Assembly (NCBI GenBank): GCA_019057865.1
Contig: JAHLWP010000003.1
Location: 32,001 to 96,000, forward strand
Direction of reading: 5' to 3'
Length of the DNA: 64,000 nucleotides
DNA from: Promethearchaeota archaeon
Lineage (GTDB): Archaea; Asgardarchaeota; Lokiarchaeia; Sigyniarchaeales; SOKP01
The first letter of the stretch is position 1; every line of letters starts with the position of its first letter. The notes beneath the pieces are model-generated. The model was given only the letters and a program-made list of their open reading frames with translations. It was not told where the DNA came from and searched no databases. Made by a program: the position numbers and the translations under genes. Below, in pieces: positions 39,994 through 55,430 of the stretch.

Positions 39994-40698
39994 ATGGTTT
40001 CTCCAGATGGTTGGATTGATGGTATTACTGCCTCAGGTGTGGTAATTTTTGGTATAATCTTTGGTTTATTCTTTTTTTATGTATCAAGAAAAAGGAAAGC
40101 AAAACTTCTTTTATTTTTAGGTTTAGCTAATTTACTTGCAGGTCTAATGTTTTTAGGAGTGTTTTTAGATTTTTTACTGGTTGTAATAACAGAAAATAAT
40201 ATAGATAATTCGAATGGATTGGTTGGAATTCTTAGTTATATATGGTTTGCTCCCACCGTTATTACTGCGATGTATATTGGTACTGAACTCCTTACGCCAA
40301 AGATGAAATGGTATATAATATCTATAATTGCAATTATTAGTATTATTTTTGAAATTGTTATTTTCATGGATCCCTTAAACGCTTTTTATTTTGACGAACC
40401 GACGACGATCCCACCCGAAAGATTAATTGATTATAATGTTAATTTAGATACTATGGCAGGAATGTTAGTAGGGAGCCTATTACTATCTGTATTAATTTTT
40501 CTTGGAATCGGATTTTTATACAAGGCTTTTCAATCTACAGGTGAAATAAAAAGAAAGTTCTATTTCTTATCACTAGGTTCATTATGTTTTTGCATATTTG
40601 GACTTTTAGAAGGTTTAACTGCTCCAGGTTTTATGGTGATTATCGTAAGAATTGGCTACTTGAGTAGTTTTTGGTTTATGTACGTGGGATTAAGATAA
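39994..40698 (+). CDS. seven-TM membrane protein without cytoplasmic tail
   Basis: 7 hydrophobic segments; similar to the N-terminal parts of the 44633, 45876 and 51010 genes (WFAP, LID loop, STGxxKRK). Confidence 0.85.
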   Translation: MVSPDGWIDGITASGVVIFGIIFGLFFFYVSRKRKAKLLLFLGLANLLAGLMFLGVFLDFLLVVITENNIDNSNGLVGILSYIWFAPTVITAMYIGTELLTPKMKWYIISIIAIISIIFEIVIFMDPLNAFYFDEPTTIPPERLIDYNVNLDTMAGMLVGSLLLSVLIFLGIGFLYKAFQSTGEIKRKFYFLSLGSLCFCIFGLLEGLTAPGFMVIIVRIGYLSSFWFMYVGLR

Positions 40699-40799
40699 GA
40701 ATAGCCAAAAATTCAATCTTTTTTTTTTATATAAAGATTTGCTTCGATTCATAAGGCAATAAAATAATTAAACAAGACTTATGATTAGAAATTAAAATA

Positions 40800-41429
40800 T
40801 TACTTTATTCTTAATAGGAGATATTGGAACATACATCCTGCTCTGTTTCTTGCTAAAACTTTTAAGCCATAAGATTTTATTAATCTCTCAAAATCATCTA
40901 AATTATATTTAAATATCCATGCCATATTTTGAGTTTTATTATCATAAGGATTAGGAATATCGACCATGCATTTTCCGGTTGGTTTAAGTACTCTTATAAT
41001 TTCATCGAATACTTGTTTTACATATTCTAATGGGTAATATTCGAACATCCCTATACACGTTACCCAATCAAAGAATTGATCAGGGTAAGGTAATTGATCT
41101 GCCACACAGACTCGAATATCTTTAATATTAAATTCTAAATTATTTTGGTTAATTTTCTGCTTCAATTGTTCAAGCATTTTTGGAGATTGATCAATTCCAT
41201 AACAGAAGCTTCCTAATTTTGCCATTTCAATTAAGAATGTCCCTGTGCCTGTGGCAATATCTAAAACAACTTCATTAGGTTGTACGTGAACTAATTTTTT
41301 AAAGCCGTTATATTCGTTTAATGCATCTTCACTGCTCCACCATTCTTTATCATAGTTATTAGCATGAGTATCATTATATTGCTTACGAAATTTCTTGATC
41401 TCCTCAATCTTCTTTTCTTTCTCTTTCAT
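40800..41429 (-). CDS. class I SAM-dependent methyltransferase (UbiE-like)
   Basis: VLDIATGTG, GIDQSPKML, LPYPDQFFD, RVLKPTG. Confidence 0.9.
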   Translation of the reverse strand: MKEKEKKIEEIKKFRKQYNDTHANNYDKEWWSSEDALNEYNGFKKLVHVQPNEVVLDIATGTGTFLIEMAKLGSFCYGIDQSPKMLEQLKQKINQNNLEFNIKDIRVCVADQLPYPDQFFDWVTCIGMFEYYPLEYVKQVFDEIIRVLKPTGKCMVDIPNPYDNKTQNMAWIFKYNLDDFERLIKSYGLKVLARNRAGCMFQYLLLRIK

Positions 41430-41688
41430 TTTAAGATTTTTAAGATATTTAAGATATTTATTTAAAATGATCTACTTATTAAATCATATATCTTATAATT
41501 AAACAACTAGTTTGAATAGTTTTTAATTTATATCTTTAGGATTTAATACCTACTTTTTTCAATAATATTACTAAATATTTGGATCAATAAAAAATAAAAA
41601 AGCGAAAATACAAAATATTATTGAATAAGGATTTTTTTTTTTATTAAAGCATCCTTTTATAAATAGCTGTAAATGGAGGAAATCTAAG

Positions 41689-42738
41689 ATGGAAGAAGAT
41701 ATCATAACCTCGGTTTTATATATTGAGCTTAATGATGAACTTGGACCAAACCCAATTGTTTGTCTTCCTTCTGATTTCTCTCTTGAAAATCAAATGCATA
41801 TAAGTATAAAAGTTATTACAATTCTTTCTGGTGAACATGGTCTGGTTCCAGAATCTCTCGTAATCCTTCCATTTCCTTCACTAAATTTAAAGGGATTGAT
41901 TAAATATATAATTTGGGATGATGAATCTCGTAGAGGTGATATTGGTCAATCTGCTATTACTGTACTTTTTAAAAATGTTGATGACGTTATATTTTATCAA
42001 TATAAGAATAATCTTGAGTTAATTTTTAATGAAATTGCAGCAAAAATCATTAAGTTAGAAAAATCAAAAGCAGATAAGAAATATATTACGAACGAGATAA
42101 AAACACTTGAAAGAGTTATATTAAATGCATTATATGAGTTGAAAGTTAAAGAAACTTCTACTCCAGATATGGAAGCTTTTCCTGAAATATCAAGAAAAAG
42201 TTTTGATTTTATAGATTATAAATTTAAGATAAGCATTTGTGGAGATCCTGGTGTTGGTAAAACTTCTTTAATTTTAAGATTTACTAAAAAAGCGTTTAGA
42301 AGAAAGTACATTCCAACATTAGGAGTCGTGGTTTCAGATCGAGCTTTTAAGATCGACGATTCTGTTGTTCAATTGGTAATTTGGGATATCGCGGGACAAG
42401 TAAAGTTCGAAACCATGAGACGACAGTTTTATCTCGGAACAGATGGGGTTTTCTTAGTATTTGACTTAACTAGCTCTAAATCTTTCGATAGCATTCTAAG
42501 ATGGTATCAAGATATTGAAAACCAATTGAAAAAGACAAGAGAAATTATAGGATTTATAATAGGTAATAAAAATGATTTAATCAATGAAAAAATTGTTGGA
42601 TTTGAACAAGCAAATAAGTTAGCAAATGATCTGAATCTTAACTTTATAGAAACTTCAGCTTTAACAGGAGAAAATGTTGAACAAGCTTTTTATGACATTG
42701 CCAAAACTTTATATGAATCATTAAAGAATGATTTATAA
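41689..42738 (+). CDS. uDENN/longin + Rab-like small GTPase
   Basis: LYIELNDELGPNP; GDPGVGKTS, YIPTLG, WDIAGQ, GNKND, ETSAL. Confidence 0.9.
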   Translation: MEEDIITSVLYIELNDELGPNPIVCLPSDFSLENQMHISIKVITILSGEHGLVPESLVILPFPSLNLKGLIKYIIWDDESRRGDIGQSAITVLFKNVDDVIFYQYKNNLELIFNEIAAKIIKLEKSKADKKYITNEIKTLERVILNALYELKVKETSTPDMEAFPEISRKSFDFIDYKFKISICGDPGVGKTSLILRFTKKAFRRKYIPTLGVVVSDRAFKIDDSVVQLVIWDIAGQVKFETMRRQFYLGTDGVFLVFDLTSSKSFDSILRWYQDIENQLKKTREIIGFIIGNKNDLINEKIVGFEQANKLANDLNLNFIETSALTGENVEQAFYDIAKTLYESLKNDL

Positions 42739-42777
42739 TAAAAATCCATTCAAAAATTTGATTTCTTTTAAGTTATA

Positions 42778-42803
42778 CTTCGTGAAAGCTGAGTTTCACG
42801 AAG
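42778..42803. repeat. perfect 10-bp hairpin between the tandem longin-Rab genes
   Basis: CTTCGTGAAA-GCTGAG-TTTCACGAAG. Confidence 0.8.
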
Positions 42804-42941
42804 AAAATTCATAGTTATATGAAATAAAAAAAAAGGTTATTTATTCTTCATCTTCTTCTTAAATTATAATAATTTATATAAATTAATCATATATAGTACC
42901 AATTTTTTTTTAATTAAGTTATAAATTTATTGATACTTACG

Positions 42942-43982
42942 ATGGCTAAAGAACTAATAAAAGCAATAATTTTTACAGAATTTGACGAAGAACTTGGACC
43001 AAATCCGGTTTTATGGTACCCTTCTGATTTACCTGAGAGCTTTCGCATGGTAGTTAGTATTAAATCAATTACAATTCTTTCAGCAGACCAAGGATTGATG
43101 CCGAAATCTCTAATCATTATGCCATTTCCCTCATTAAACTCGAAAGGTATAATAAAATATATTGAAAAAGAAGATAAATCTCGCCGCGGTGGTGTTGCTC
43201 AATCATCTATCACTTTACTTTTCAGTGAAATTGATGATCTGATTTTTTATAAATATTTGATCTTTCTAGAACCTGCATTTAATGAAACTACTCAAGAAAT
43301 AATAAAAATAGAAGATATTAAAACAAATAAAGAAATTCTTTCTAATGAAATAGATAATTTACGGACCGAAATTTTAAATATTTTAGAGGACCTCCGAATA
43401 AAAGAACAATCTGTCCTAAAAACTGAAGCTTTTCCTGAAGAACCTGTAGAAGATAAAGAGGTCATAAAATATAAATTTAAAATAGTGGTTTGTGGTGATC
43501 CGGGGGTAGGAAAAACTTCCACTATTTTAAGATTTACTGATAATGCCTTTATACGTACGTATATTCCAACCCTAGGGGTTAATATTAGCGAAAAAAATGT
43601 TAAGATTGATGGAAACTTAGTTGGATTAATTCTCTGGGACATAGCTGGGCAAAGCAAGTTTGAAACAATGAGAAAACATTTCTATAAGGGAACAGAAGCA
43701 GTTATTTTAATATTTGATTTAACAAATTTGAAATCCTTTGAGAGCATACCTAAATGGTATGAAGACATAAAAAAATATGTAATAGCTGATAATAAAATTG
43801 TTGGATTTATCTTAGGAAACAAGGAAGATTTAGAAGATAGTAGAATAATTGCTAAAAAAGATGCTAATAAAATTGCAAAAGAACTTGGCCTTGATTATAT
43901 AGAAACTTCTGCTTTAACTGGAAAAAATGTAGAGTTAAGTTTTCATAAAGTAGCAGAAGCTTTAATTAATTCTAAAAAATAA
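42942..43982 (+). CDS. uDENN/longin + Rab-like small GTPase (tandem paralogue)
   Basis: IIFTEFDEELGPNP; GDPGVGKTS, YIPTLG, WDIAGQ, GNKED, ETSAL; ATG start chosen over the TTG at 42930. Confidence 0.9.
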   Translation: MAKELIKAIIFTEFDEELGPNPVLWYPSDLPESFRMVVSIKSITILSADQGLMPKSLIIMPFPSLNSKGIIKYIEKEDKSRRGGVAQSSITLLFSEIDDLIFYKYLIFLEPAFNETTQEIIKIEDIKTNKEILSNEIDNLRTEILNILEDLRIKEQSVLKTEAFPEEPVEDKEVIKYKFKIVVCGDPGVGKTSTILRFTDNAFIRTYIPTLGVNISEKNVKIDGNLVGLILWDIAGQSKFETMRKHFYKGTEAVILIFDLTNLKSFESIPKWYEDIKKYVIADNKIVGFILGNKEDLEDSRIIAKKDANKIAKELGLDYIETSALTGKNVELSFHKVAEALINSKK

Positions 43983-44001
43983 TGAGAAATCAATTAGAAT
44001 A

Positions 44002-44577
44002 ATGGAATTAGAAGAAATTATATATAAAAGAAGGACTATCAGAAGATTTAAGCAAGATTCAGTTCCATTAGATATATTAAAAAAGCTGATAGATTTTGCT
44101 CGTGTTGCTCCAATGGCAACTAATCGGCAAGCTCTTGAATTTATTATCATTCAGAATGACGAAAGTCGCCAAAAACTATTTCCATTGGTAAATTGGGCAG
44201 CACTTCTACCAAAAAATGAAAGAACTCCTGAGAAGGGAAGAGAACCTACAGCTTATATAATTATTCTTGTAAATACTAAAATAAAAAAAACTTATGTTGA
44301 TTTTGATGTTGGAGCAGCAGTTGAAAATATTCTTCTTGGGGCAGTACATTTTGGATTAGGTTGTTGTTGGATGGGAAGTATTAATGCAAAAAAGATTCGA
44401 GAATTATTTGAGATTCCTGACTATTATGATATAAAGCATGTTATAAGTTTAGGATATCCAGATGAATTAACTATCATTGAACCTTATAAAGGTTCCTTTA
44501 ATTATTGGAAGGATGAAGAAGGTACCATACATGTACCTAAAAGAGATTTAAATGATATAATTTTCAAAATATATTAA
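44002..44577 (+). CDS. nitroreductase family protein
   Basis: RRTIRRF, APMATNRQ, DVGAAVENILLGA..GLGCCW, LGYP. Confidence 0.92.
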   Translation: MELEEIIYKRRTIRRFKQDSVPLDILKKLIDFARVAPMATNRQALEFIIIQNDESRQKLFPLVNWAALLPKNERTPEKGREPTAYIIILVNTKIKKTYVDFDVGAAVENILLGAVHFGLGCCWMGSINAKKIRELFEIPDYYDIKHVISLGYPDELTIIEPYKGSFNYWKDEEGTIHVPKRDLNDIIFKIY

Positions 44578-44632
44578 TTTTGTATTCAGATTTAAGTTAA
44601 AAGAATTTAGAATTAAATCATATTTATTACAA

Positions 44633-45679
44633 ATGCCTTCTGCTATTGGAGTAATAAATGCTTTAACCGTTATTATATGGTTTACCCTTGGTTTAATATG
44701 GGGGATATTTAGTCTAATTAAATCAAAGAAATCAAAATCATATGTTTTATTTTCTATGGGTTTAGCTGTATTATTTATAAGCTTTTTATATTCAGGTTTG
44801 GTCTTAGATTCATTATTAGTTCTTTTTACAGAGAGCAACTTAGATACAAATATACATGGTATTCTTACATTTTTCTGGTTTGGTCCTTTAGTAATTATAG
44901 GTACCTATATATTTAATGAACTTATTGCGATGAACTTTAAATTATGGTTGAAGTATTTAATTTTAATTTATTTTTCAATAATAAGTATAATCTTTGAAAT
45001 TCTGTTATTTTTAACTCATTCAAGTTCGATCATTTATAAAATTCCCTCAGAACCTGGTCAAGACTTAATTGATAATATCTTAGTTTTTTGGACACCTCCA
45101 TTTTATATGCTGGCAATTTCTTTATTTCCTGGGATTATAGTATTTAGTCTTTCATTTTTATATGGGGGTATTAAATCCTCAGGAATATTAAGAAAGAAAC
45201 TCATATTATTATTAATCACTTTTGCAGTATTTTTTGGTTTTGGTTCTTTAGATATTGCTATTTTCCCTTTAGATTTCTTTAATTTACCTAAAGGTACATC
45301 AATAATTATAATAAGAGTTTTTATGATTATTGGGGGATTTATCTTTTTTTTTAGCTTAAAAGAAGAATCCATTAAAGCTTCCATTAAAAAATTTAAATCT
45401 GAAGAACCATCTCTTATAGATATTTTAACTGAGACTAAATCTAAAGATATATCACAAGAAAAAATCTTAGCATTTCGAGAACAAACAATATGTCTAATCT
45501 GTGAAAGAGAAATACAAGGCTTTATTAAAATTTTCTTATGTCCTCAATGTGAAGCATTATATTGTGAAAGATGCGCACAAAAGATGATAGAAATGAGTAA
45601 TATGTGTTGGATATGTGATGAGCAAATTGACGAATCAAAACCTGTTAAGCAAGATAATGATATATCTGGAAGCCTATAA
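44633..45679 (+). CDS. seven-TM protein with C-terminal C4C4 RING-type zinc finger
   Basis: 7 TMs then CLIC-x12-CPQC-x4-CERC-x10-CWIC. Confidence 0.85.
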   Translation: MPSAIGVINALTVIIWFTLGLIWGIFSLIKSKKSKSYVLFSMGLAVLFISFLYSGLVLDSLLVLFTESNLDTNIHGILTFFWFGPLVIIGTYIFNELIAMNFKLWLKYLILIYFSIISIIFEILLFLTHSSSIIYKIPSEPGQDLIDNILVFWTPPFYMLAISLFPGIIVFSLSFLYGGIKSSGILRKKLILLLITFAVFFGFGSLDIAIFPLDFFNLPKGTSIIIIRVFMIIGGFIFFFSLKEESIKASIKKFKSEEPSLIDILTETKSKDISQEKILAFREQTICLICEREIQGFIKIFLCPQCEALYCERCAQKMIEMSNMCWICDEQIDESKPVKQDNDISGSL

Positions 45680-45875
45680 TTAAAAGCTATTTTTAAAATG
45701 CTAAAAAAAAGTAATATGACATCTCGCTTTACATTAACGTGAAAAAATTTTTAAGTAAATCGAGCAAAATTAATTATGTAATCTTTTGCAAATTTAGATT
45801 TTGTCATTAAAAAGAAAAACACAAGCTCAAATATAATACTAAATCTACTACTATAATACAAAAAAGGTGTAATAT

Positions 45876-46979
45876 ATTACTTTAACTCCTATTGGACTAT
45901 TTAACGGAATAACAGCAATTATTTGGTATATTACTGGCTTAATTTGGGGTTTCTTTAGTCTCTATAGATATAAAAAATCAAAAGCAGATATTTTATTGTA
46001 TTTTGGCTTAACAATTATATTCATAAGTATGTTTTTCACTGGTATTATTTTAGATTTTTTCACAATCCTCTTTACTGGCAAGAATTTGAATAATACCTCT
46101 GGAATTCATGGTATTTTAACATTTATATGGTTTGCTCCTACTCTCTCATTTGGGATATATATTGGTCTTGAATTTTTGATACCAGGTGTTAAAAAAGAAT
46201 TAAAAAATTCAATATTATTTACTTATATTATTTTAGCAATAATCTTTGATTTATTCCTTTTTTTAGACCCATTTGGTACTGTAGATTATAAGATGCCTTC
46301 AAAATCAGGGGAAAACTTAATTGATAATGTTTTAATTATAGGTTCTCCTGCTTCTATTTTAGTTATGATCTTTTTTGCAACAGCAATACTGTTCTATGTT
46401 GTAAGATTTTTGTATGGATCTGTTAAATCAACAGGTCTCTTAAGAGAGAAATTCACTAGACTAACTATATGTTTTTTTCTCTTAATAGGGTTTGGAACAG
46501 TGGATATTTTATTTTTCCTGCCGACTATAATTTTAATTATTGTTAGATATGGAATGGTTGTTAGTGGACTTTTTTTTGTTTTGGGAGTAAAAAAAGAAGA
46601 AGCGCCAACCAAACCAAAAGAAGTTATTCATGATGATGAAGTTGAGAGTGGAGTCCTAACAACTTCATTATCCAAGGTTTTATCATATTCTAGACCATCT
46701 GATATATCTACAAATGATATTGAGTTATATCGAAAACAAACAATCTGTTTAGTTTGTAAAAAAAAATTAAAAGGATTCATAGACGTTTTTATTTGCCCTA
46801 AATGTAAGTCATTTTATTGTGATAAATGCGCTCAAATATTAACTCAGTTAGAAAATATGTGTTGGTCATGTAATAATCCAATTGACGATTCAAAACCCAT
46901 TAAACCTTTTAAAATTGAAGAAGAAGATATCGATATCAGCATATCAGAAGGATCAAGGAAAACACTCAGAGAGGAATAG
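45876..46979 (+). CDS. seven-TM protein with C-terminal C4C4 RING-type zinc finger; probable ATT start
   Basis: frame extends 40 codons upstream of the TTG at 45996 and encodes a TM1 homologous to that of 44633; AGGTG lies 6 nt before ATT; CLVC-x12-CPKC-x4-CDKC-x10-CWSC. Confidence 0.8.
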   Translation: MTLTPIGLFNGITAIIWYITGLIWGFFSLYRYKKSKADILLYFGLTIIFISMFFTGIILDFFTILFTGKNLNNTSGIHGILTFIWFAPTLSFGIYIGLEFLIPGVKKELKNSILFTYIILAIIFDLFLFLDPFGTVDYKMPSKSGENLIDNVLIIGSPASILVMIFFATAILFYVVRFLYGSVKSTGLLREKFTRLTICFFLLIGFGTVDILFFLPTIILIIVRYGMVVSGLFFVLGVKKEEAPTKPKEVIHDDEVESGVLTTSLSKVLSYSRPSDISTNDIELYRKQTICLVCKKKLKGFIDVFICPKCKSFYCDKCAQILTQLENMCWSCNNPIDDSKPIKPFKIEEEDIDISISEGSRKTLREE

Positions 46980-47129
46980 CACATAATAATAGTCACATAA
47001 TAATTATAAATAAATGAAATTAAGATTACATAAAAAGAAATAAAATATTTAAATATATAATATAAATTTTAAAATAAATTAAATTAATCATTAAAAAACT
47101 AAATTATTTAAAAAAAGAGAGAGATTTAT

Positions 47130-47396
47130 ATGCGAATAACAGTTGAGGATTCACGAACAGGTAAAGTTATTAAACTTGATGTTAAGGAACATCATACAAT
47201 TGAAAGGATTATAGACATAATTGTAAAGCATATGGGCATTATTAGTGCTGAGGAACGTGCATACACTTTAGTATTAAATGGAAAGGAGTTACCTACAACA
47301 ATAACCATCGAGGATTCTGTCCATAAATTTGGTTTAAAAGAAAACGACAAATTAGCCTTATGGGCAAGAGTCATAGGGGGTTATTATAAACATTAA
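47130..47396 (+). CDS. ubiquitin-like protein with GG and a 4-residue C-terminal extension
   Basis: MRITVED..GKVIKLDV...TIERI...LVLNGKEL...GLKENDKLAL..RVIGG-YYKH. Confidence 0.9.
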   Translation: MRITVEDSRTGKVIKLDVKEHHTIERIIDIIVKHMGIISAEERAYTLVLNGKELPTTITIEDSVHKFGLKENDKLALWARVIGGYYKH

Positions 47397-47471
47397 ATTA
47401 TTTTTTAATTGGAGATAATACAAAGGTTTTCCAATTATTAAAGTTAAGATTAAGAACGATATTTAACTTTT

Positions 47472-48029
47472 CTAATCTATGATGACTATGTCATCCTTTT
47501 CTTCCTCTTCTTCTTCAATTTTGAATTCTCTCTTGAGGTCTTCCATAGTATTTTGCTTAAAAAAATTTGCTGCTTCTAAACAGACATCATATTTTAATGG
47601 ATCATCTGGATTAGGATTCTCCACTAATTTTTGCAAGGCTTTGACGGTAGTCTCTAAATCTGTAAGTCTTGACCATTTTTTTAGAATGTTTAAACAAATA
47701 TAGCCAGTTCCAGATTCGTAACGCAAGGGGGCTTTAGCAGGATGAATATTGGGATGAAATATATTTGATTGCCAAGAGAATCTAATACCTCCAGGATATG
47801 GAAAAGCTCTATTTAGTTCCAAATGAATTTGATGATCTTTCTGAGGAACAATATCAATTCCTTCCTTAAAAGTACCCATAATAAAACCTAAGGCTTTTAA
47901 ATTGATTAAAAACTTAACACTATTATCACTTTGAATTATTGAATTCGTATCGATAACGTTTAAGCTTTTTAAACTTTTAATTTCATTTTCAATCCTATTT
48001 TTCCAAATTTCTAAAGGAAGTTCTGGCAT
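47472..48029 (-). CDS. ubiquitin-conjugating enzyme E2
   Basis: FPYP, IFHPNI, GYICLNILKKW (active Cys), PNPDDPL; acidic tail. Confidence 0.93.
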   Translation of the reverse strand: MPELPLEIWKNRIENEIKSLKSLNVIDTNSIIQSDNSVKFLINLKALGFIMGTFKEGIDIVPQKDHQIHLELNRAFPYPGGIRFSWQSNIFHPNIHPAKAPLRYESGTGYICLNILKKWSRLTDLETTVKALQKLVENPNPDDPLKYDVCLEAANFFKQNTMEDLKREFKIEEEEEEKDDIVIID

Positions 48030-48124
48030 CTTTTTAAAATTAAAAATCTCATTAAGTTACATATTGATATTTTCTTTCTTTATATTTATAATAATCATTT
48101 TTTATTTTGAAATGGATTTAATCT

Positions 48125-49003
48125 TCATTTATTATCCTTATAAGAACATGTCCAACAATCTGGATTCTTTAACTTTTCAATAACTTCAAATTTATTTATT
48201 AGTCCATTGTAATTTAATTGTTTTCCTATTAGTGGTTCACCAATATGAGGATTCCATTTACCTTGTTCCTTAAAATGATCATTTCCTAATATAAATTTTA
48301 TTACTTGTTGAGATTGAATTCCTCCAATAATAGAAGTTGTAGTAATTATAGTTGCAATTTTACTAATAGTAGCTCCATTCGAAGATTCGATTTCTTCTCC
48401 CGTACAGGAAAACTTTAACCACATTAGATCTAGATCAGCGCCAGAAATCCCGCATTGCAAACAAGCAGCATCAGCAACTCCAGAATAAACAGCTTGGACT
48501 GATCCAAAGAATTCATCAATTCCAGAATCAATAAAAGGTACTTGATAATAATAAGCATAATTATTTGCTTCAAGTCTAGCTTCAACATTATCAAGACAAG
48601 AGCAAATCACATCCACTTGTTTATACAAATCTTTATCTATCTCATTAAGAGCTTTCTTTATTGTTAAAATTTTAACTTCAGGGTTGAGTTTTTCACACGC
48701 TGCTTTAATGATATCTACTTTATATTTATTTTCTACTTTATTTTCCATATTAAACAAAATACATCGATTAAGATTAGATTTTTCAATAATATCATAATCA
48801 ATAATAATTAACTTTCCAATTCCACTCAAGCATAAATTTTTAGCGACTTCGTTACCGGTTGCACCAACCCCTATTATCATTACCGTCGCATTTGAGATCT
48901 TATTTTGGTCCCATCCAGCAATTCGTTTCTGCCGATCATACTTATCGTCATTTATATCCTCCTCTCCTAAGAATTTATATTCATTATCACTATTTTCTGT
49001 CAT
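48125..49003 (-). CDS. ubiquitin-activating enzyme E1 (ThiF/UBA-like)
   Basis: YDRQ, GVGATGNE, DYDIIEKSNLNR, CLDNVEAR, CLQC...FSCT (candidate catalytic Cys)...CWTC. Confidence 0.93.
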   Translation of the reverse strand: MTENSDNEYKFLGEEDINDDKYDRQKRIAGWDQNKISNATVMIIGVGATGNEVAKNLCLSGIGKLIIIDYDIIEKSNLNRCILFNMENKVENKYKVDIIKAACEKLNPEVKILTIKKALNEIDKDLYKQVDVICSCLDNVEARLEANNYAYYYQVPFIDSGIDEFFGSVQAVYSGVADAACLQCGISGADLDLMWLKFSCTGEEIESSNGATISKIATIITTTSIIGGIQSQQVIKFILGNDHFKEQGKWNPHIGEPLIGKQLNYNGLINKFEVIEKLKNPDCWTCSYKDNK

Positions 49004-49021
49004 AATTTTACAGGACTATTT

Positions 49022-49540
49022 CTACTTGATAATGGCATAACTAATTTCTTTATACCCATTTTCGGATTGATCATTTAAAGTAAAAAATTTAAATTCATCT
49101 CTAATTGGATCAACAACTAAAGCTACATGATACGATCTATTAAAAATTAAGCTTTGCGTAGTTAAATCAACACTACTTAAAAAGCATCCAATATTTGGAT
49201 GGGAATGCCACCATCCTAAATTTAGTAAGTTTTCATTATTTTGATCTAATTTCAATTTATCATATTCCTCCGAATATTTAGAAAATTCAAATTGAATATT
49301 ATTTATTATTCCTTTTTCTCCTGATTCTTGAAATGAAAATTCATTTGCTATGAAAGCTTCCTTTATGTAAAGATAATGATTTAATAAAATATATTTCTGT
49401 TTATTCCAAATGTAGCGTTCTCCAACTAAATAACCAAAAACTTCATTTACATTTTCTTTACATATCTTTTTAATCCCTTCTATTACTTCTTTAGTAATAT
49501 ATAATGGAAATACGTAATTCTCGTCAATTGTCATAATCAT
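49022..49540 (-). CDS. JAB/MPN+ (JAMM) metalloprotease, Rpn11/CSN5-like
   Basis: EVFGYLVG...GWWHSHP..GCFLSSVD..TQ...ALVVDP. Confidence 0.93.
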   Translation of the reverse strand: MIMTIDENYVFPLYITKEVIEGIKKICKENVNEVFGYLVGERYIWNKQKYILLNHYLYIKEAFIANEFSFQESGEKGIINNIQFEFSKYSEEYDKLKLDQNNENLLNLGWWHSHPNIGCFLSSVDLTTQSLIFNRSYHVALVVDPIRDEFKFFTLNDQSENGYKEISYAIIK

Positions 49541-49568
49541 GAAATTTTATTGATTTTAAGTATCTATA

Positions 49569-50492
49569 TTAGTTTGATTTTTCTATTTCAGAAACTTCCT
49601 TTTGTTTCATTTGAATTTTATTATAAATAGAATTTTTTAGAATTTCATTCATTATTATAAAAATATTTTTAGCTGAATCTTCTTGGATTGCTGTAAATCC
49701 ATATGTCTTTGCACCAAAAGTTTCTTGAATTTCTTTAGGGTCGAAAGATGTTTCTTTTAAATCCTGAAAATTGGCAATAATATAAAAATCTGCTTTCAGA
49801 ACCTTCTTCTTTAGTTTTAAATATAATTTTTTAGTTCTTCTTAAATTACTTGCTGCTGAATTAGTTATAATACAGATAATGTCGCATATGTTTAACAAAG
49901 ATTTATAGTGCTTTGAATTACTTATTAAATCTTCTAAATCAATTTCTTTCAAGATAAATTGCTTTATATTTCCTAGATTTGTTATATCAACTGGTTTTTC
50001 AATTATTTCAGTCATATCATCATCTATATCTAAAACAGTCTCTCCAGGAAATAAATCCATGATAGTAGTTTTTCCTACACCAATTTCTCCAACAAATAAT
50101 ACTTTTGGGGAAATAAAAATATATTCTTCAACAAATTCATCAAAACTTTCGAATATCTTAGTTTTACCTGTCCAGTTCTCTAGATATGTTTGGTATCTAT
50201 TGATAAACTCATTTTTCATTAATTCAACTTTTTCTCTCACTTCATCTTCCAAATCTTCTATATCTGTTACAATGACAAATATACAATCAAATTCAGAAGA
50301 ATAGGAATATATAAATTTGAAATTTTTAAAGTTAAGTGATTTTATTTCACCAACTTTAACTGCTTTAGCAAATCCACTAATTGCTGTAAGGAAGCCGCTA
50401 ATTAAATCATCTTCTACTTCACTGGGTCTTATATAATTCTTTGAATAACATAGTATCCCTCCTTTTGCGATAACGTAAATTCTTGATATCAT
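49569..50492 (-). CDS. longin + degenerate small-GTPase-like domain
   Basis: IYVIAKGGILCYSK..DLISGFLTAI longin; GEIGVGKTT P-loop; no DxxG; ANFQD at the G4 position. Confidence 0.8.
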   Translation of the reverse strand: MISRIYVIAKGGILCYSKNYIRPSEVEDDLISGFLTAISGFAKAVKVGEIKSLNFKNFKFIYSYSSEFDCIFVIVTDIEDLEDEVREKVELMKNEFINRYQTYLENWTGKTKIFESFDEFVEEYIFISPKVLFVGEIGVGKTTIMDLFPGETVLDIDDDMTEIIEKPVDITNLGNIKQFILKEIDLEDLISNSKHYKSLLNICDIICIITNSAASNLRRTKKLYLKLKKKVLKADFYIIANFQDLKETSFDPKEIQETFGAKTYGFTAIQEDSAKNIFIIMNEILKNSIYNKIQMKQKEVSEIEKSN

Positions 50493-50524
50493 CTTCTCGC
50501 TTTGGTAAATTAGGTTAATGTTTT

Positions 50525-50569
50525 TATACTGAGTATGCCGGAATTTAATTGTCGGGGCAACTCAATATA
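50525..50569 (-). promoter_or_regulatory. hairpin in the putative leader of the longin-GTPase/JAB/E1/E2 unit
   Basis: minus strand UAUAUUGAGUUGCC...GGCAUACUCAGUAUA pairs with one bulge and one G-U. Confidence 0.45.
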
Positions 50570-50577
50570 CATCCATT

Positions 50578-50620
50578 TTAATTTAATTTAAGATAATAAG
50601 ATTAATTAAAATGATTATGA
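50578..50620. repeat. 43-bp upstream element shared with 54797..54839
   Basis: 39 of 43 positions identical by manual alignment; both copies precede paralogous longin-GTPase genes. Confidence 0.75.
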
Positions 50621-50681
50621 AAAATATATATAAATATAATTAAAAAGTTTGAAACTATAGAAAAATATCAAGGGAGCTCTT

Positions 50682-50843
50682 ATGCATGATAAACAAAATG
50701 GTGATTCATATCCAACAATAGTAAAAACAAAAAAGAAAGGAATAATAGAGCGCAAACCTCCAAATGACAAAATTATTTTTTACAAATTCACCAAGACAGA
50801 AGAAGCAAATGAAACAAAAACAGAAGAAAATAATGGTACTTAA
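50682..50843 (+). CDS. small 53-aa ORF
   Basis: MHDKQNGDSYPTIVKTKKKGIIERKPPNDKIIFYKFTKTEEANETKTEENNGT; GGGAG upstream. Confidence 0.4.
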   Translation: MHDKQNGDSYPTIVKTKKKGIIERKPPNDKIIFYKFTKTEEANETKTEENNGT

Positions 50844-51009
50844 AAAAACTCGTAAATATAAATTCAAAATGGAATAAAGCTATATTTAAGCATTAAGGAT
50901 ATTAAAAAAAAGGGGAATTTATAAAATTAGACATACTTGTAACAATTTTTATATTAATATAAAAAAGAGATAATTACAATAGAAATTATAAAGAAATATA
51001 TTTAAAAAG

Positions 51010-52083
51010 GTGGATCCGAAATTGCTTTCTGATGTAGGTTGGCTTAATGTTATCTCAATAATGGGCATTTTTATATTTGGCTGCTCTTTTGGATTATACT
51101 TTATGTATCAAGGTAGAAAGACTAACGTTAAACTCCTTTTTTATATGGGTTTGGGTATCCTTTTTAATGGTCTTTGGTATTGGGGAAATTTTTGGGAGTC
51201 GTTATCAATTCTTATCACAGGTGAAAATTTTGATAATGTATCAGGTATAAATGTACCATATGAATTACAGGCTATTATGAGCTTTATTTGGGTACCTTTA
51301 ACAATAATTTTTGTTGTGTATGTAGGTGGTGAGCTCCTAATACCTAAAAGAAAATGGTACATTGTAGGGTTTATTATATTTTTAACACTTGTATGGGAAT
51401 TGTTTCTTTTTTTAGATCCATTAGGATCTATATCAATTTATGTTCCCACAGTACCAGGTGAAGATCTCGTTGATGAAGATTTTATTATTAATTCTCTTTT
51501 ATACTTCATTGGTTTCTTATTCTCACTTACGAGCTTACTATTTCTTGGAATTGGTTATTTAATTAAAAGCATTAAATCAACAGACATATTAAGAAAAAAA
51601 TATTTTTATTTAGCAATTGGCTTTATTTTAAATCCCATGTTTGGAATGATTGAGGGATCAGGTATTATTGGTGTTGGTCTATTTTTAGTAAGAATTGGTA
51701 TGTCTTTTACTTTTTTATTGTATTACTTGGGTTTAAGAGAAGAACCCGCTAAAATTAAAATAGTACCTACTGAAAAAGAAGTTAAAATTGAAGATTCAAT
51801 ATTTAGGATTGCTAAAAAACCTGCCCAAATAACTGAAGAAGAAGTTACTTATTATAGAGAGCAGAAAATATGTTTAGTATGTAAAGGTAAGGCAGGGGGT
51901 TTCAATACGTATATTTGTACTGGATGTGATGCTTTATACTGTGAAAACTGTGCACGCGCATTATCCAGTATGGAAAATGTTTGTTGGGCCTGTAATGAGC
52001 CAATTGACAAGGAAAAACCTTCAAAACCATTTAAGATTGAGGGAGAAGAAGCTAAAGTTAAGGAAAAAGACAAGAAAATCTAA
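51010..52083 (+). CDS. seven-TM protein with C-terminal C4C4 RING-type zinc finger
   Basis: 7 TMs then CLVC-x11-CTGC-x4-CENC-x10-CWAC; real start probably the TTG at 51022 after AGGTGG. Confidence 0.85.
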   Translation: MDPKLLSDVGWLNVISIMGIFIFGCSFGLYFMYQGRKTNVKLLFYMGLGILFNGLWYWGNFWESLSILITGENFDNVSGINVPYELQAIMSFIWVPLTIIFVVYVGGELLIPKRKWYIVGFIIFLTLVWELFLFLDPLGSISIYVPTVPGEDLVDEDFIINSLLYFIGFLFSLTSLLFLGIGYLIKSIKSTDILRKKYFYLAIGFILNPMFGMIEGSGIIGVGLFLVRIGMSFTFLLYYLGLREEPAKIKIVPTEKEVKIEDSIFRIAKKPAQITEEEVTYYREQKICLVCKGKAGGFNTYICTGCDALYCENCARALSSMENVCWACNEPIDKEKPSKPFKIEGEEAKVKEKDKKI

Positions 52084-52149
52084 AAAATTTTTTCATATTA
52101 AATTTAAATTGATCGTTCAAGATCTTCTTGAATATATATGATTTATTAA

Positions 52150-54765
52150 TTACCTTGTACTTTGTATAAATCTCTTATCTTTTTTTCGTTCTTTTTCCCA
52201 TTTTTTACGTTCTGAACGTAATTTAAAGAGATCCACATCTTTAAAAATCATGTTCTCTTCTTTAGGTGGTATTATTCTTTCAATACGCTCTTTTTCTGGT
52301 GTGTAAATGAGAGATTCTCCGAATTCAGCGATATTTACAAAGAAACAATAAGCATATATTGACCTCCGGGCATCAAAATGGGCTGCTTTAAAATCAGCTG
52401 TAACGGGAGTAAAGGCTGGATTGAACATTAAGTCTATTGGAGGTTCAAAATTCTTAAGTTCAACTCTGAGATCCATATCAAGAAAATCTCTACATATAGC
52501 TATTGCCATTCTACCAAATTCGGTATTACATATAATAGTTTGTCTTGGTACTGCTTCTGTCTTGATACCTTCTTTAAATCTTTTTCCTTTAAAATGTATA
52601 ATTGCTGGAATATGTTTTTCTTGCTCCCAAAGAATTCCATCTGGACTAAAAACTGCACTTATATTTTGCCTAGTTTCTTTATTGTGATATGATCCCGGGA
52701 TTATGTACATTTCATATAATTTGGCAAAATTAGATATATCCTCAAGAAATTTACCATAATTGAGGTCAATGGACATTTCTGGAAAAATGAGGATATTTAC
52801 ACTGCTAGCATGGGCTTTTTCTATCATATCCTTAATCTTAGATCTAATCACATCAATTTTGTCTTTACGGAGTCCTAACAAACCAGGAGTTTTTTCTTTA
52901 TAGAATTCTTTTAAATAATCCCCAGTACTAGATACTCCTATTTGAGCAATACCCACTCTACATTCTCTTCTTTGAATTTTTGGATACTCTTTTAATAAAT
53001 CTCTATAAATTAGTTTATATTTTCTATTTTTACCCCTTTTTTCCACTTCTTTTTTCGGAGTTGGTTGCGGAATTGATGGTACCAATAAATCTAAAGTATT
53101 TTTGGATATAGAAGGTTCGCTGATTGTACCTAATGCAGAAATTATTATTTTCTCTTCTTTCTCTATTAAATTCAAGCGATCTATGACTTCCTTTTCTCTA
53201 TCGTTATATCCTGCTTTACCAAATAGTTCAGCTGCAGATTTTAATACGCCAGATCCAATTTTTAAAAGTTTTTTCTTTTCTTCAAGATTTAATTCTTCAT
53301 CTGCTCTGATTATATACCAAGTAGCATCAAAATAAGTAGAAGTAGCAAGAGCCCAATTTGCCTCACTTTTAAACTCACCCTTTTGATACAAATTTGCAGC
53401 ATTTCTTAACATCATTTTAATTTTTGGATAAAATTCTGCCTTGATAGATGTGTCGCCTGCCTTATCAAATTTACAACCTAAACCTAATGCTTGACAAAAA
53501 GCAGAATTTCCTAAAGCTAATGACTTTAGTTTACTATTCGTGAAATGTTTACTAGCTTTAGTAAATAACTCTGCTGCTTCTGAATATCTTTCAGGGTCTT
53601 CATATTCTTCAGCACATTCCATAGCCTCCCATGCTCTACAAAGAAAAGAAATGGCAGTAAGTTCTTCTACATCTTGTTCGAATTCTACTCTTGAGCACAT
53701 GTCTTTAAATTGAGTAGCAGCACAAGAAAATTTTTCTGCAGCCGCAAGATGCTCACCTTTTCTTTCTAAAATTCTTGCTTTTTCTATTTGATCCCAAATA
53801 TCTACATAATCAACCTTCTCATATTCAGCTTTTTCTTCACTATAAAAGACAGGTTCTTCTTCTATTGTGAGGATATGTTTCTTTTCTATTTTATCTAAAA
53901 TAGAAATTTTTAGTATTTCTTTTATTATAAAAATTATTTTAGTTTTAGATTCCTCTTTAATTGCTGTAAAGCCAAAAGTTTTAATTCCAAGCGTTTCTTC
54001 TATTTTTTCAGGCTCAAATGCAACATCTTTCAAATCTTGAAAGTTTGCTAGAAGATAAAAGTCATTTTTCTTTACTTCAGGTTTTAATTCTGAGACTAAA
54101 GTCTTTGTTCGACCCAAATTACTTGCCGCTGAATTCGTAACAATAAGTACAACATCAACAGATTTTAATAAGTTTTTGTATAGATGCGGATTATAGGTCA
54201 GTTCTTCCATATTAATTTCTTGTATAATACATTGATGTATTCCCTTTAAATTATCTAAATTAATAGGTTTTTGAATAACCTCATTTAAATTATCATCAAT
54301 TTCCAAAATAGTGTCACCAGGAATTAAATCCATAATTGTTGTTTTTCCTACACCATCTTCTCCAGTTAATAAGATCCTAGGTGGAATAAATACATTTTCA
54401 TCCACAAAATCATCAAAATCTTCAAAAACACTAACATTTCCTGTCCAATTCTCTAAAAATGGTCTATATCTTATTATGAATTCATTTTTCATCAGTTCAA
54501 GTTTAGTTCTTGTTTCTTGTACAAAATCATCTTTATCAATTACAATAACAAAGATGCAATCAAATTCAAATGAGTAAGAATATATAAACTTAAAATTTCT
54601 AAAATTAAGGGCTTTTACTTCACCCCCTTTAATTTCTTTGGCAAAATCACTAATAGCTTTCAGAAATCCACTAATAACTGTTTCATCTATATCAATCTGC
54701 TCAAAAAAATTCTTAGAATAACAGAGAATTCCTCCTCTCGCAATAATGAAAATTTTTAATATCAT
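52150..54765 (-). CDS. longin + degenerate GTPase + helical repeat + carbon-nitrogen hydrolase (nitrilase) fusion
   Basis: first ~290 aa paralogous to the 49569 gene; TPR/SNAP-like helices; VGIAQI, IFPEMS, IIPGS, QEKH, IAICRD. Confidence 0.85.
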   Translation of the reverse strand: MILKIFIIARGGILCYSKNFFEQIDIDETVISGFLKAISDFAKEIKGGEVKALNFRNFKFIYSYSFEFDCIFVIVIDKDDFVQETRTKLELMKNEFIIRYRPFLENWTGNVSVFEDFDDFVDENVFIPPRILLTGEDGVGKTTIMDLIPGDTILEIDDNLNEVIQKPINLDNLKGIHQCIIQEINMEELTYNPHLYKNLLKSVDVVLIVTNSAASNLGRTKTLVSELKPEVKKNDFYLLANFQDLKDVAFEPEKIEETLGIKTFGFTAIKEESKTKIIFIIKEILKISILDKIEKKHILTIEEEPVFYSEEKAEYEKVDYVDIWDQIEKARILERKGEHLAAAEKFSCAATQFKDMCSRVEFEQDVEELTAISFLCRAWEAMECAEEYEDPERYSEAAELFTKASKHFTNSKLKSLALGNSAFCQALGLGCKFDKAGDTSIKAEFYPKIKMMLRNAANLYQKGEFKSEANWALATSTYFDATWYIIRADEELNLEEKKKLLKIGSGVLKSAAELFGKAGYNDREKEVIDRLNLIEKEEKIIISALGTISEPSISKNTLDLLVPSIPQPTPKKEVEKRGKNRKYKLIYRDLLKEYPKIQRRECRVGIAQIGVSSTGDYLKEFYKEKTPGLLGLRKDKIDVIRSKIKDMIEKAHASSVNILIFPEMSIDLNYGKFLEDISNFAKLYEMYIIPGSYHNKETRQNISAVFSPDGILWEQEKHIPAIIHFKGKRFKEGIKTEAVPRQTIICNTEFGRMAIAICRDFLDMDLRVELKNFEPPIDLMFNPAFTPVTADFKAAHFDARRSIYAYCFFVNIAEFGESLIYTPEKERIERIIPPKEENMIFKDVDLFKLRSERKKWEKERKKDKRFIQSTR

Positions 54766-54796
54766 AGCAGATCTCTATTTTTATCTATATTTTTAC

Positions 54797-54839
54797 TTAA
54801 TTTAATATTAGATAATAAGATTAATTAAGATAATTATGA
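54797..54839. repeat. 43-bp upstream element shared with 50578..50620
   Basis: TTAATTTAATattaGATAATAAGATTAATTAAgataATTATGA. Confidence 0.75.
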
Positions 54840-54866
54840 GAGTAATTATAAGGAAAATTAAATAAA

Positions 54867-55430
54867 TCAGCTTTTACCTTGCAATTCTAAGAATAATGCC
54901 TTATATTTATTATATAATTCTCTGATTATTACTTGAAAGGCCTGAGATACTCCTTCACCTGTTTTTGCTGATGTTCTATAATATTCAAGAAAATTTCCTT
55001 TTTTCATAATTTTTAAAATCTTTGTATCTACCAAATTCTCTTTATCAACTAAATCAACTTTATTAGCAAATACCACGATGGGAATATCACCACAAAATTT
55101 AAGAATATCATCATGCCAATTTGGTATATGCTTGAGACTATTTTTACCAAGATCATTTTCTTCAAGCGAATATACAATAATAGCTGCTTTGCTATCTCTA
55201 TAGAAGGAGGGTCGTAAGAAATGAAACTCATCTTGACCCGCAATATCCCAGAAAAAAAGCTCACAAAAGTCTCCATCTATTTCCATTTCATATATAGAAA
55301 ACTGTGCTCCAATAGTTTTGATGTATTCCTCTTGAAAATTACCTTCTGTAAATTTTTGTATTAAGGATGTTTTCCCTACTTGCCCATCTCCAATAACAGT
55401 TATTTTAAATACAAATTTTTGCCTTTTCAT
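54867..55430 (-). CDS. Rab-like small GTPase
   Basis: GDGQVGKTS, YIKTIG, WDIAGQ, ANKVD, TSAK; no C-terminal Cys. Confidence 0.93.
   Translation of the reverse strand: MKRQKFVFKITVIGDGQVGKTSLIQKFTEGNFQEEYIKTIGAQFSIYEMEIDGDFCELFFWDIAGQDEFHFLRPSFYRDSKAAIIVYSLEENDLGKNSLKHIPNWHDDILKFCGDIPIVVFANKVDLVDKENLVDTKILKIMKKGNFLEYYRTSAKTGEGVSQAFQVIIRELYNKYKALFLELQGKS

Follow-up and report, generated by a model that had tools for sequence, protein, structure and literature searches.

Seven-transmembrane proteins with RING-fold tails as candidate ubiquitin ligases beside an archaeal ubiquitin-like cassette

Can proteins that cross the membrane seven times serve as the ubiquitin ligases (E3s) of an archaeal conjugation cascade? 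The question is raised by a locus of Promethearchaeota archaeon (GTDB lineage Archaea; Asgardarchaeota; Lokiarchaeia; Sigyniarchaeales; SOKP01) that lies in a window of 64,000 nucleotides, the whole stretch of DNA analysed (GenBank assembly GCA_019057865.1, contig JAHLWP010000003.1, positions 32,001 to 96,000 of the forward strand); coordinates below are those of the window. An initial annotation, made from the sequence alone, had described three paralogous seven-transmembrane (7TM) proteins ending in eight-cysteine tails, with a ubiquitin-like protein (Ubl), an E2, an E1 and a JAMM protease encoded between them. This description proved accurate: the four cassette genes are open frames with Pfam matches, and the three paralogs, called 7TM-RINGs here, have seven transmembrane (TM) helices and the expected Cys spacing in their translations. 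Paralog 1 (44633..45679, + strand, 348 amino acids (aa)) consists of a 7TM domain, a linker and a C4C4 RING-like tail with its cysteines at 287-327. Paralog 2 (45876..46979, + strand, 367 aa if ATT at 45876 is the start) is directly upstream of the Ubl gene on the same strand. Paralog 3 (51010..52083, + strand, 357 aa), with TM helices at 8-37, 41-70, 84-110, 112-135, 163-189, 192-216 and 222-242, is 31% identical to paralog 1, and is the one closest to the copy found upstream of Ubl in other genomes. The 7TM-RINGs are, in our judgement, probably polytopic N-out/C-in membrane proteins whose cytoplasmic C4(C/H)C3 RING-fold module recruits the Ubl-charged E2 of the locus. Their architecture, topology, RING fold, conserved E2-facing surface, synteny and strict co-occurrence with the locus E2 were computed here.

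The tails of paralogs 1 and 2 read C-x2-C-x12-C-x2-C-x4-C-x2-C-x10-C-x2-C, and paralog 3 has x11 in place of x12. For alignments and counts we used a family set of 103 sequences, in which the spacing is C-x2-C-x10-13-C-x2-C-x4-(C/H)-x2-C-x10-C-x2-C and compatible with a RING. Seven zinc ligands are invariant; ligand 5 is Cys in 87 sequences and His in 16, an alternation that marks this position as a metal ligand. Y310, N323 and W326 are also invariant, and the flanks, comprising a helix at 276-284 and a P-I-D-K-S-K-P-S-K-P tail, are strongly conserved. The spacing had been likened to that of the C4C4 RING of TFIIH p44, and the correspondence is exact, since the tail aligns to p44 (1z60) without gaps and with all eight Cys matched (E 0.0015). 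The same PDB profile search returned the KMT2D PHD finger (1.8e-5), RNF4 (7.6e-5) and the MLL3 PHD finger (2.4e-4), together with RNF113A-like, BMI1 and MDM2 entries. At E<=0.01, 54 of the 103 tails matched zf-C3HC4_3, 24 matched zf-RING_2 and 21 matched Prok-RING_1 (best 5.6e-8). More members of the family match C1_2 or zf-C3HC4_3 than Prok-RING_1 (PF14446), for which the window proteins scored 16.4 and 17.1 bits against a cut-off of 29.1; some database homologs carry a precomputed Prok-RING_1 match.

Where sequence does not decide, structure does, and the tail models as a RING/U-box fold. A model of the tail alone had a pLDDT of 78, rising above 87 over the finger. With Foldseek, the top 50 matches to this model were all RING or U-box structures, but with weak E values (0.09-0.8), and VIA-align gave Z scores of 4-5.1 and rmsd of 1.8-3.2 Å over 46-55 residues. 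In a scan of 48,161 representative PDB chains that was independent of Foldseek, RING/U-box structures took 49 of the 50 best places (Z 3.4-4.9, rmsd about 2-3 Å over about 50 residues). Neither the Foldseek search nor the 48,161-chain scan placed a zinc ribbon, PHD, FYVE or C1 fold in its top 50. Our reading of the fold relied on the uniformity of these match lists, and not on any single score; the zinc ribbon, which the initial annotation had weighed against a RING, is not what the tail resembles in any of the three comparisons.

The whole protein was modelled with AlphaFold2 from the 103-sequence alignment (mean pLDDT 86.5), giving seven TM helices with a beta-hairpin in loop 4, a disordered linker at 250-266, and then a compact C-terminal domain; in paralog 3, the hairpin, which is conserved and has a P-x2-P-G-E-x-L-I-D motif, occupies 141-158 in the outside loop 4, helix 276-284 follows, and the RING spans 288-328. 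Lys plus Arg residues average 3.9, 2.9, 4.0 and 6.3 in loops 1, 3 and 5 and after TM7, and 0.1, 0.5, 0.7 and 0.1 in the N-terminus and loops 2, 4 and 6. The distribution therefore indicates an N-out/C-in protein with a cytoplasmic tail, in agreement with the orientation first read from the basic loops. The linker-plus-RING module is not confined to this 7TM domain. It also follows a second, unrelated polytopic N-domain of ~400 aa that starts M-x-W-D-P-x-E-R-F-L (L074, L076, L079, L082, L083), which fits a membrane-tethered output module; it occurs once on a soluble 321-aa protein (L078), and some relatives carry up to 17 copies per genome.

No Pfam family of TM domains matched the 7TM proteins at E<=1, including the HisKA_7TM and 7TMR-DISM models. 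Searches of the PDB with the full model (Foldseek) returned GABA-B, mGlu and class A receptors at E 3e-4 to 1e-2, a weak likeness with TM-scores of 0.30-0.45 and rmsd of 6-9 Å, and because of this weakness we do not call the protein a G-protein-coupled receptor (GPCR). The nearest models in the ESM Atlas were Promethearchaeota clusters with the same module, either fused to TIR or stand-alone, followed by sensor modules of the HisKA_7TM, 7TMR-DISM, GGDEF and histidine-kinase kinds (TM-score 0.53-0.56, rmsd 3.6-4.9 Å). One of the Promethearchaeota clusters, of 78 proteins, joins the 7TM fold (TM-score 0.71) to a TIR_2 domain as an alternative output, which hints at a role in conflict or signalling. 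A metagenomic relative, P0143 (403 aa), joins the 7TM module to a homolog of the longin-like N-domain encoded at 49569-50492 (BLASTP 4e-6). By sequence, P0143 connects the 7TM family with its longin-GTPase neighbours through a gene fusion; P0143 and P0148 (403 aa) had no Pfam match at E<=0.01, and the longin link comes from BLASTP plus a faint Intu_longin_1 match. With its TIR-fused and longin-fused relatives, the 7TM domain behaves like a membrane unit whose cytoplasmic output can be exchanged.

If the tail recruits the E2 of the locus, the surface that it would use should be visible. The positions of E2 contact are hydrophobic and conserved: residue 290 is V, I or M, L318 is found in 95 of 103 sequences, and W326, present in all, occupies the place of the usual Pro. 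On the E2 side, helix 1 and W119-D124 are nearly invariant in an alignment of 17 orthologs. The tail and the locus E2 were then modelled as a complex, both as alignments and with two zinc ions included. The complex scored 0.69, and the best of three controls 0.00; 58 of 80 solved complexes attain that mark, as do 2 of 110 mismatched pairs. Runs shared at least 86% of contacts, with partner pLDDT of at least 81. In the predicted interface, E2 residues 2-19 (helix 1) and 118-124 (loop 7, after the catalytic Cys) face RING residues 289-293, 313-317, 321-322 and 326-327, and the three hydrophobic positions all fall inside it. The modelled arrangement is the canonical RING-E2 surface and geometry, with the tail on the E3-binding face of the E2, so that the complex suggested for checking in the initial annotation came out in its favor. 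Since RING-E2 complexes are abundant among solved structures, passing this mark shows likeness to them and is not proof that this copy binds.

Linkage of the two gene sets was evaluated within the genome and across relatives. Had the 7TM-finger family been widespread, its proximity to the cassette would have been expected by chance, as the initial annotation pointed out. The 4.26-Mb source genome (87 contigs; the window has about 28% G+C) encodes seven family members, of which four have the finger; three of these four, along with a finger-less paralog, fall within one 12-kb stretch here. This rarity indicates that the arrangement does not reflect chance. Starting from the 7TM-RING protein, we recovered 79 loci from other assemblies. 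In 17 of these, Ubl-E2-E1(-JAMM) adjoins, with Ubl usually 70-150 nt downstream of the 7TM-RING gene on the same strand; two loci have Ubl and the gene for an 871-aa fusion protein only, and six have only the 871-aa gene or one for a 307-aa longin-GTPase. The conserved order is finger-less paralog, two longin-Rab fusions, nitroreductase, 7TM-RING (one to three copies), Ubl, E2, E1, JAMM, 871-aa fusion and Ras-like GTPase, and adjacency is kept across genera at 40-60% protein identity.

The strongest evidence for linkage is a matched table of 61 genomes from one GTDB family, in which E2 and RING module occur together in 29, E2 alone in none, the RING module alone in 8, and neither in 24. Seven of the eight RING-only genomes are just 64-89% complete. 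Mixed states of presence and absence occur inside five genera, implying repeated joint gain or loss, though kinship inflates the counts. A search for the locus-type E2 at E<=1e-20 found it in 19 of 40 genomes of one GTDB family and in none of 161 genomes in 26 other families. Of 20 genomes with the locus-type E2, 13 have a RING-tail gene no more than 3 kb from the cassette, and 2 are cut off by a contig end before this can be judged; a longin-GTPase gene always adjoins JAMM in E2-bearing genomes where sequence is available.

Several side observations concern the same loci. The 15-kb gene order of the window at 39994-55430 is kept in several genera of the GTDB family. In some genomes, the ubiquitin cassette is missing as a unit between the 7TM-RING and 871-aa genes, which then directly adjoin. 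At L102:2543-2734 (= G121), upstream of Ubl, a remnant of 64 codons reaches from the linker to the sixth RING Cys and then stops, and looks like a decayed 7TM-RING gene in the usual position. Loci 60-80% identical to this one also occur in assemblies titled Hermod-, Hod-, Odin- or Thorarchaeota (L007-L012, L036, L080); given the restriction of the E2 to one GTDB family, those phylum labels look unreliable, and we did not use them as evidence of breadth.

Together these results can be placed in a scheme in which JAMM would trim the GG-YYKH precursor, and the short ThiF-type E1 would activate the Ubl and hand it to Cys112 of the E2. The RING tail would then dock on helix 1 and loop 7 of the E2 through V290, the L318 helix and W326, and the Ubl could be discharged onto lysines of membrane-proximal targets, these being the 7TM protein itself, neighbouring membrane proteins, or the longin-GTPase partners of the locus. 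The 7TM domain would act as a membrane anchor and probably also as an input or substrate-selection module. Ligase catalysis, the targets and any ligand control are what we infer in this scheme. We give a somewhat better than even chance to the tails being functional, E2-recruiting ligase domains of the locus cascade.

A number of findings weigh against that conclusion. The linchpin residue, usually Arg or Lys in active RINGs, follows the last Cys at position 329 and is here N in 71 sequences, D in 19, E in 6, G in 2, S in 2 and K in 1; the Arg/Lys linchpin of a RING is thus replaced by N, D or E in 96 of 103, which bears out the early caveat that the last Cys pair has W and N/D in place of the usual P and R. 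Matches of the window proteins to RING families in Pfam are sub-threshold, at 18 bits for zf-C3HC4_3 (cut-off 27) and 16.5 bits for zf-RING_2 (cut-off 27.3), and the matches of the tails scatter over C1_2, RING, DZR, PHD and B-box, all below threshold, so that no family is assignable by sequence. Judged on their own, the Z scores (3.4-5.1) are modest, as is to be expected for a domain of only about 50 residues, and the query was a predicted model without zinc. The closest match in spacing, the p44 RING, is mainly structural in its role. In 5 of the 20 E2 genomes, the 6-10 kb around the cassette hold no RING-tail gene, and since the 7TM-RING gene abuts the 871-aa gene without the cassette in several genomes, adjacency may partly reflect a larger inherited block. 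All genomes compared come from one family, so the counts are not independent. About five zf-RING_2-type matches and two other UQ_con E2 loci (contigs C18 and C41) are present elsewhere in the genome. The proposal of membrane RING E3s that complete the cascade accordingly stands in part: fold, modelled docking and linkage side with it, and the N/D/E linchpin, the five genomes lacking a nearby RING-tail gene and the other RING genes do not. As far as computation can tell, none of the three refuting conditions named in the initial annotation applies.

The alternative that survives best, which we consider possible if rather unlikely, is that the tail has no catalytic role and works as a RING/PHD-like interaction module, comparable to those of TFIIH p44 or BMI1-type partners, serving dimerisation or the binding of longin-GTPases, Ubl or lipids. 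The 7TM proteins would then be regulators, scaffolds or substrates, with an E2 that works free of an E3 or with a RING from elsewhere, and there are other RING genes in the genome. The missing linchpin, the identity of spacing with p44, the PHD-like His at ligand 5 in 16 of 103 sequences and the PHD finger of KMT2D as best PDB sequence match (1.8e-5) all fit such a module. Conserved flanks suggest extra partners, among which the longin proteins are suggested by the fusion in P0143 and by the pairing of 7TM-RING with the 871-aa gene even where the ubiquitin cassette is lacking. Against this stand the absence of PHD, FYVE and C1 structures from the top 50 of either fold search, the hydrophobic and conserved residues at the three classic E2-contact positions, the modelling of the tail on the E3-binding face of the E2 with controls at 0.00, and the matched genomes, where 0 of 29 with a locus-type E2 lack the RING module.

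A further question is whether the 7TM domain of a membrane-bound ligase would also sense a signal. Ligand sensing or quality control, the roles first proposed, go further than the present results support; a sensor may be suggested by the moderate fold likeness of the models to prokaryotic 7TM sensor modules. The more specific idea, that a genuine sensor gates the RING tail and works with the adjacent longin-GTPases in an archaeal pathway from receptor to ubiquitin and small-GTPase signalling, is tentative and in our estimate unlikely. If true, it would represent a prokaryotic relative of receptor-coupled ubiquitylation and of endocytic/ESCRT sorting of membrane proteins, with receptor and ligase in one polypeptide.

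A less probable account, to which we give little weight, takes Ubl-E2-E1-JAMM as an E3-independent, Bil/CBASS-like conjugation system, possibly for defence, and the 7TM-RINGs as neighbours merely co-inherited in a variable island. The four-gene make-up is that of E3-less bacterial Ubl systems such as Bil; the distribution is patchy even within genera, the cassette looks inserted between the 7TM-RING and 871-aa genes, and relatives of the 7TM module carry TIR domains. With PADLOC, the E1 and JAMM gave generic matches to CBASS E1-E2 and JAB models (4e-18 and 6e-7), but these matches, partial for the E1, span generic catalytic cores only, and the E2 and Ubl had no match in this 2023 library, which is older than the description of Bil. 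In addition, the E2 is of the eukaryote-type UQ_con family with an HPN motif, the locus belongs to a stable block of 11 genes, among them Rab/Ras-like GTPases, rather than to a defence island, and the presence of RING and E2 is tightly coupled. Finally, proximity by chance or by history alone, through tandem duplication and with no functional link, is very improbable: two of the three copies are tandem duplicates and the comparison genomes are all kin within one family, but only four RING-bearing copies exist in 4.26 Mb, adjacency persists at 40-60% identity across genera, and the co-occurrence table reads 29/0/8/24.

How do the 7TM-RINGs compare with described systems? A di-Gly Ubl precursor, a ThiF-type E1, a UQ_con-type E2, a JAMM/Rpn11-like protease and a RING-fold protein are clustered here as in archaeal operons of E1, E2, small RING and Rpn11, and the grouping of Ubl with C-terminal GG, ThiF E1, UQ_con E2 and JAMM, kept in 29 of the 61 family genomes, is that of an archaeal eukaryote-like ubiquitin operon. 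The small-RING operons use a soluble small RING E3; the present locus instead has one to three copies of a 7TM protein that carries the RING as its tail, along with a short E1 of 292 aa and a longin-GTPase gene that is invariably adjacent. Examples with a soluble RING E3 are the ubiquitin operon of Caldiarchaeum subterraneum (PMC5654768, PMC6043591) and the Helarchaeia cascade (bioRxiv 10.1101/2023.07.25.550441). No soluble RING gene lies within the cluster here, as previously noted, though the genome has zf-RING_2-type matches elsewhere. Like the eukaryotic E3s Hrd1 and gp78, the 7TM-RINGs begin with a membrane domain of several spans and end in a cytoplasmic RING, and the HRD1 RING is among the structural matches of the tail (Z 4.0-4.3). 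In contrast to those enzymes, the ligands are C4(C/H)C3 and not RING-H2, the linchpin Arg is missing, and comparison of the membrane domains detected no similarity, so we claim no homology beyond the RING fold. The likeness to the C4C4 RING of p44/Ssl1 includes the structural match (Z 4.5, rmsd 3.1-3.2 Å over 49 residues), but p44 is a soluble and mainly structural protein with an N-terminal vWA domain, and shares no context with these N-terminal 7TM domains. In PHD fingers (C4HC3), His is at ligand 5, which holds for only 16 of 103 sequences here. HisKA_7TM (PF16927) and 7TMR-DISM proteins also place a seven-helix bundle before a cytoplasmic output, and are the nearest predicted-structure neighbours outside Asgard archaea; this likeness is moderate (TM-scores 0.53-0.56), with no Pfam sequence match, and the output here is a RING rather than a kinase or GGDEF domain.

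In the literature, RING E3s and '7TM proteins' are named separately among Asgard signature proteins (PMC13734099). None of the papers searched describes a 7TM protein fused to a RING or links such a protein to a cassette of this kind, and an earlier mention, for example in supplements, may exist. We therefore regard the 7TM-RINGs as credible, apparently undescribed archaeal candidates for polytopic RING E3s. To call membrane RING E3s a hallmark of eukaryotes seems too strong to us: the Pfam family Prok-RING_1 was defined from prokaryotic RINGs beside ubiquitin-system genes, and its entry mentions bacterial versions that are membrane-associated. For this reason we do not rate the 7TM-RING as a new category.

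Membrane ubiquitylation, as in endoplasmic reticulum-associated degradation (ERAD), receptor down-regulation and ESCRT sorting, is taken to be a eukaryotic innovation requiring membrane-embedded RING ligases, and the archaeal cascades reconstituted so far have, to our knowledge, used small soluble RINGs. The locus would offer a small system (88-aa Ubl, 292-aa E1, 185-aa E2, 172-aa JAMM and a tail of ~80 aa) in which to ask whether membrane-targeted ubiquitylation predates eukaryotes. It would also show, in a natural case, a membrane domain of the sensor type joined directly to a ligase, and would tie ubiquitin to longin/small-GTPase modules within a single conserved locus. Being restricted to one family, it may instead be a lineage-specific invention and not the ancestor of the eukaryotic enzymes.

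The cassette itself begins with the Ubl precursor (47130..47396, + strand, 88 aa), which ends in VIGG-YYKH and has a weak Pfam match to Rad60-SLD. In its orthologs, the GG either ends the protein or is followed by 1-4 variable residues, a pattern to be expected if the adjacent JAMM trims a precursor. The next three genes are on the - strand. The E2 (47472..48029, 185 aa; Pfam UQ_con 4.8e-12) has the HPN motif, the catalytic Cys112, and a C-terminal tail that is acidic and then runs into hydrophobic residues plus D. This C-terminus (window 47472-47560), an acidic stretch followed by an Ile/Val and Asp run with the consensus D-D-I-I-I-I-D-D, is present in 17 of 17 orthologs; the run is reminiscent of SUMO-interaction-type motifs, and Ubl or the short E1 might be its binding partner. 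The E1-like adenylating enzyme of the short ThiF type (48125..49003, 292 aa) matches Pfam ThiF at 9.9e-48. The JAMM/MPN+ metalloprotease (49022..49540, 172 aa; JAB 1.3e-10, Prok-JAB 1.2e-5) has an HSHP...S..D motif in its translation, and is likely the enzyme that processes the Ubl precursor and removes conjugated Ubl.

Neighbouring genes extend the block on both sides. The finger-less 7TM paralog (39994..40698, + strand, 234 aa) marks its start, and has the same position in L007, L010, L016 and L052. The gene that adjoins JAMM (49569..50492, - strand) encodes the 307-aa protein with a longin-like N-domain and a P-loop GTPase-like domain. The 871-aa fusion (52150..54765, - strand) is convergent with paralog 3 and combines longin-like, GTPase-like, helical-repeat and C-N hydrolase parts (CN_hydrolase 2.5e-4), the N-terminal part being paralogous to the 307-aa protein. 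The best PADLOC matches of its C-N hydrolase domain were nitrilase domains of DRT reverse-transcriptase defence proteins (7.6e-14), which is probably generic superfamily similarity.

Other ubiquitin-system genes are encoded outside the window. On contig C41, a second co-directional operon (L085:7074-10171) encodes a ubiquitin of 110 aa (ubiquitin family 5e-5), an E1 of 411 aa, an E2 of 175 aa (UQ_con 5.5e-25) and a JAB protein of 278 aa, and is more ubiquitin-like than the window cassette. With this operon and the other RINGs and E2s, cross-talk is possible. On contig C9, a soluble Cys-rich open reading frame of 73 aa (L086:7577-7798, - strand) matches the tail profile (6.6e-7) and is possibly a free-standing mini RING-like protein.

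Paralog 2 appears to start at a non-canonical codon. Its sole ATG, GTG or TTG start is the TTG at 45996, but TM1 is encoded upstream of that position. The frame opens after a TAA at 45870, and an ATT at 45876 lies 6 nt after GGTG. Orthologs have ATT (L005:4780-4790) or ATA (L006:4881-4890) in the same place, so that the ATT/ATA plus GGTG arrangement right after an in-frame stop (window 45870-45996) is kept in three assemblies.

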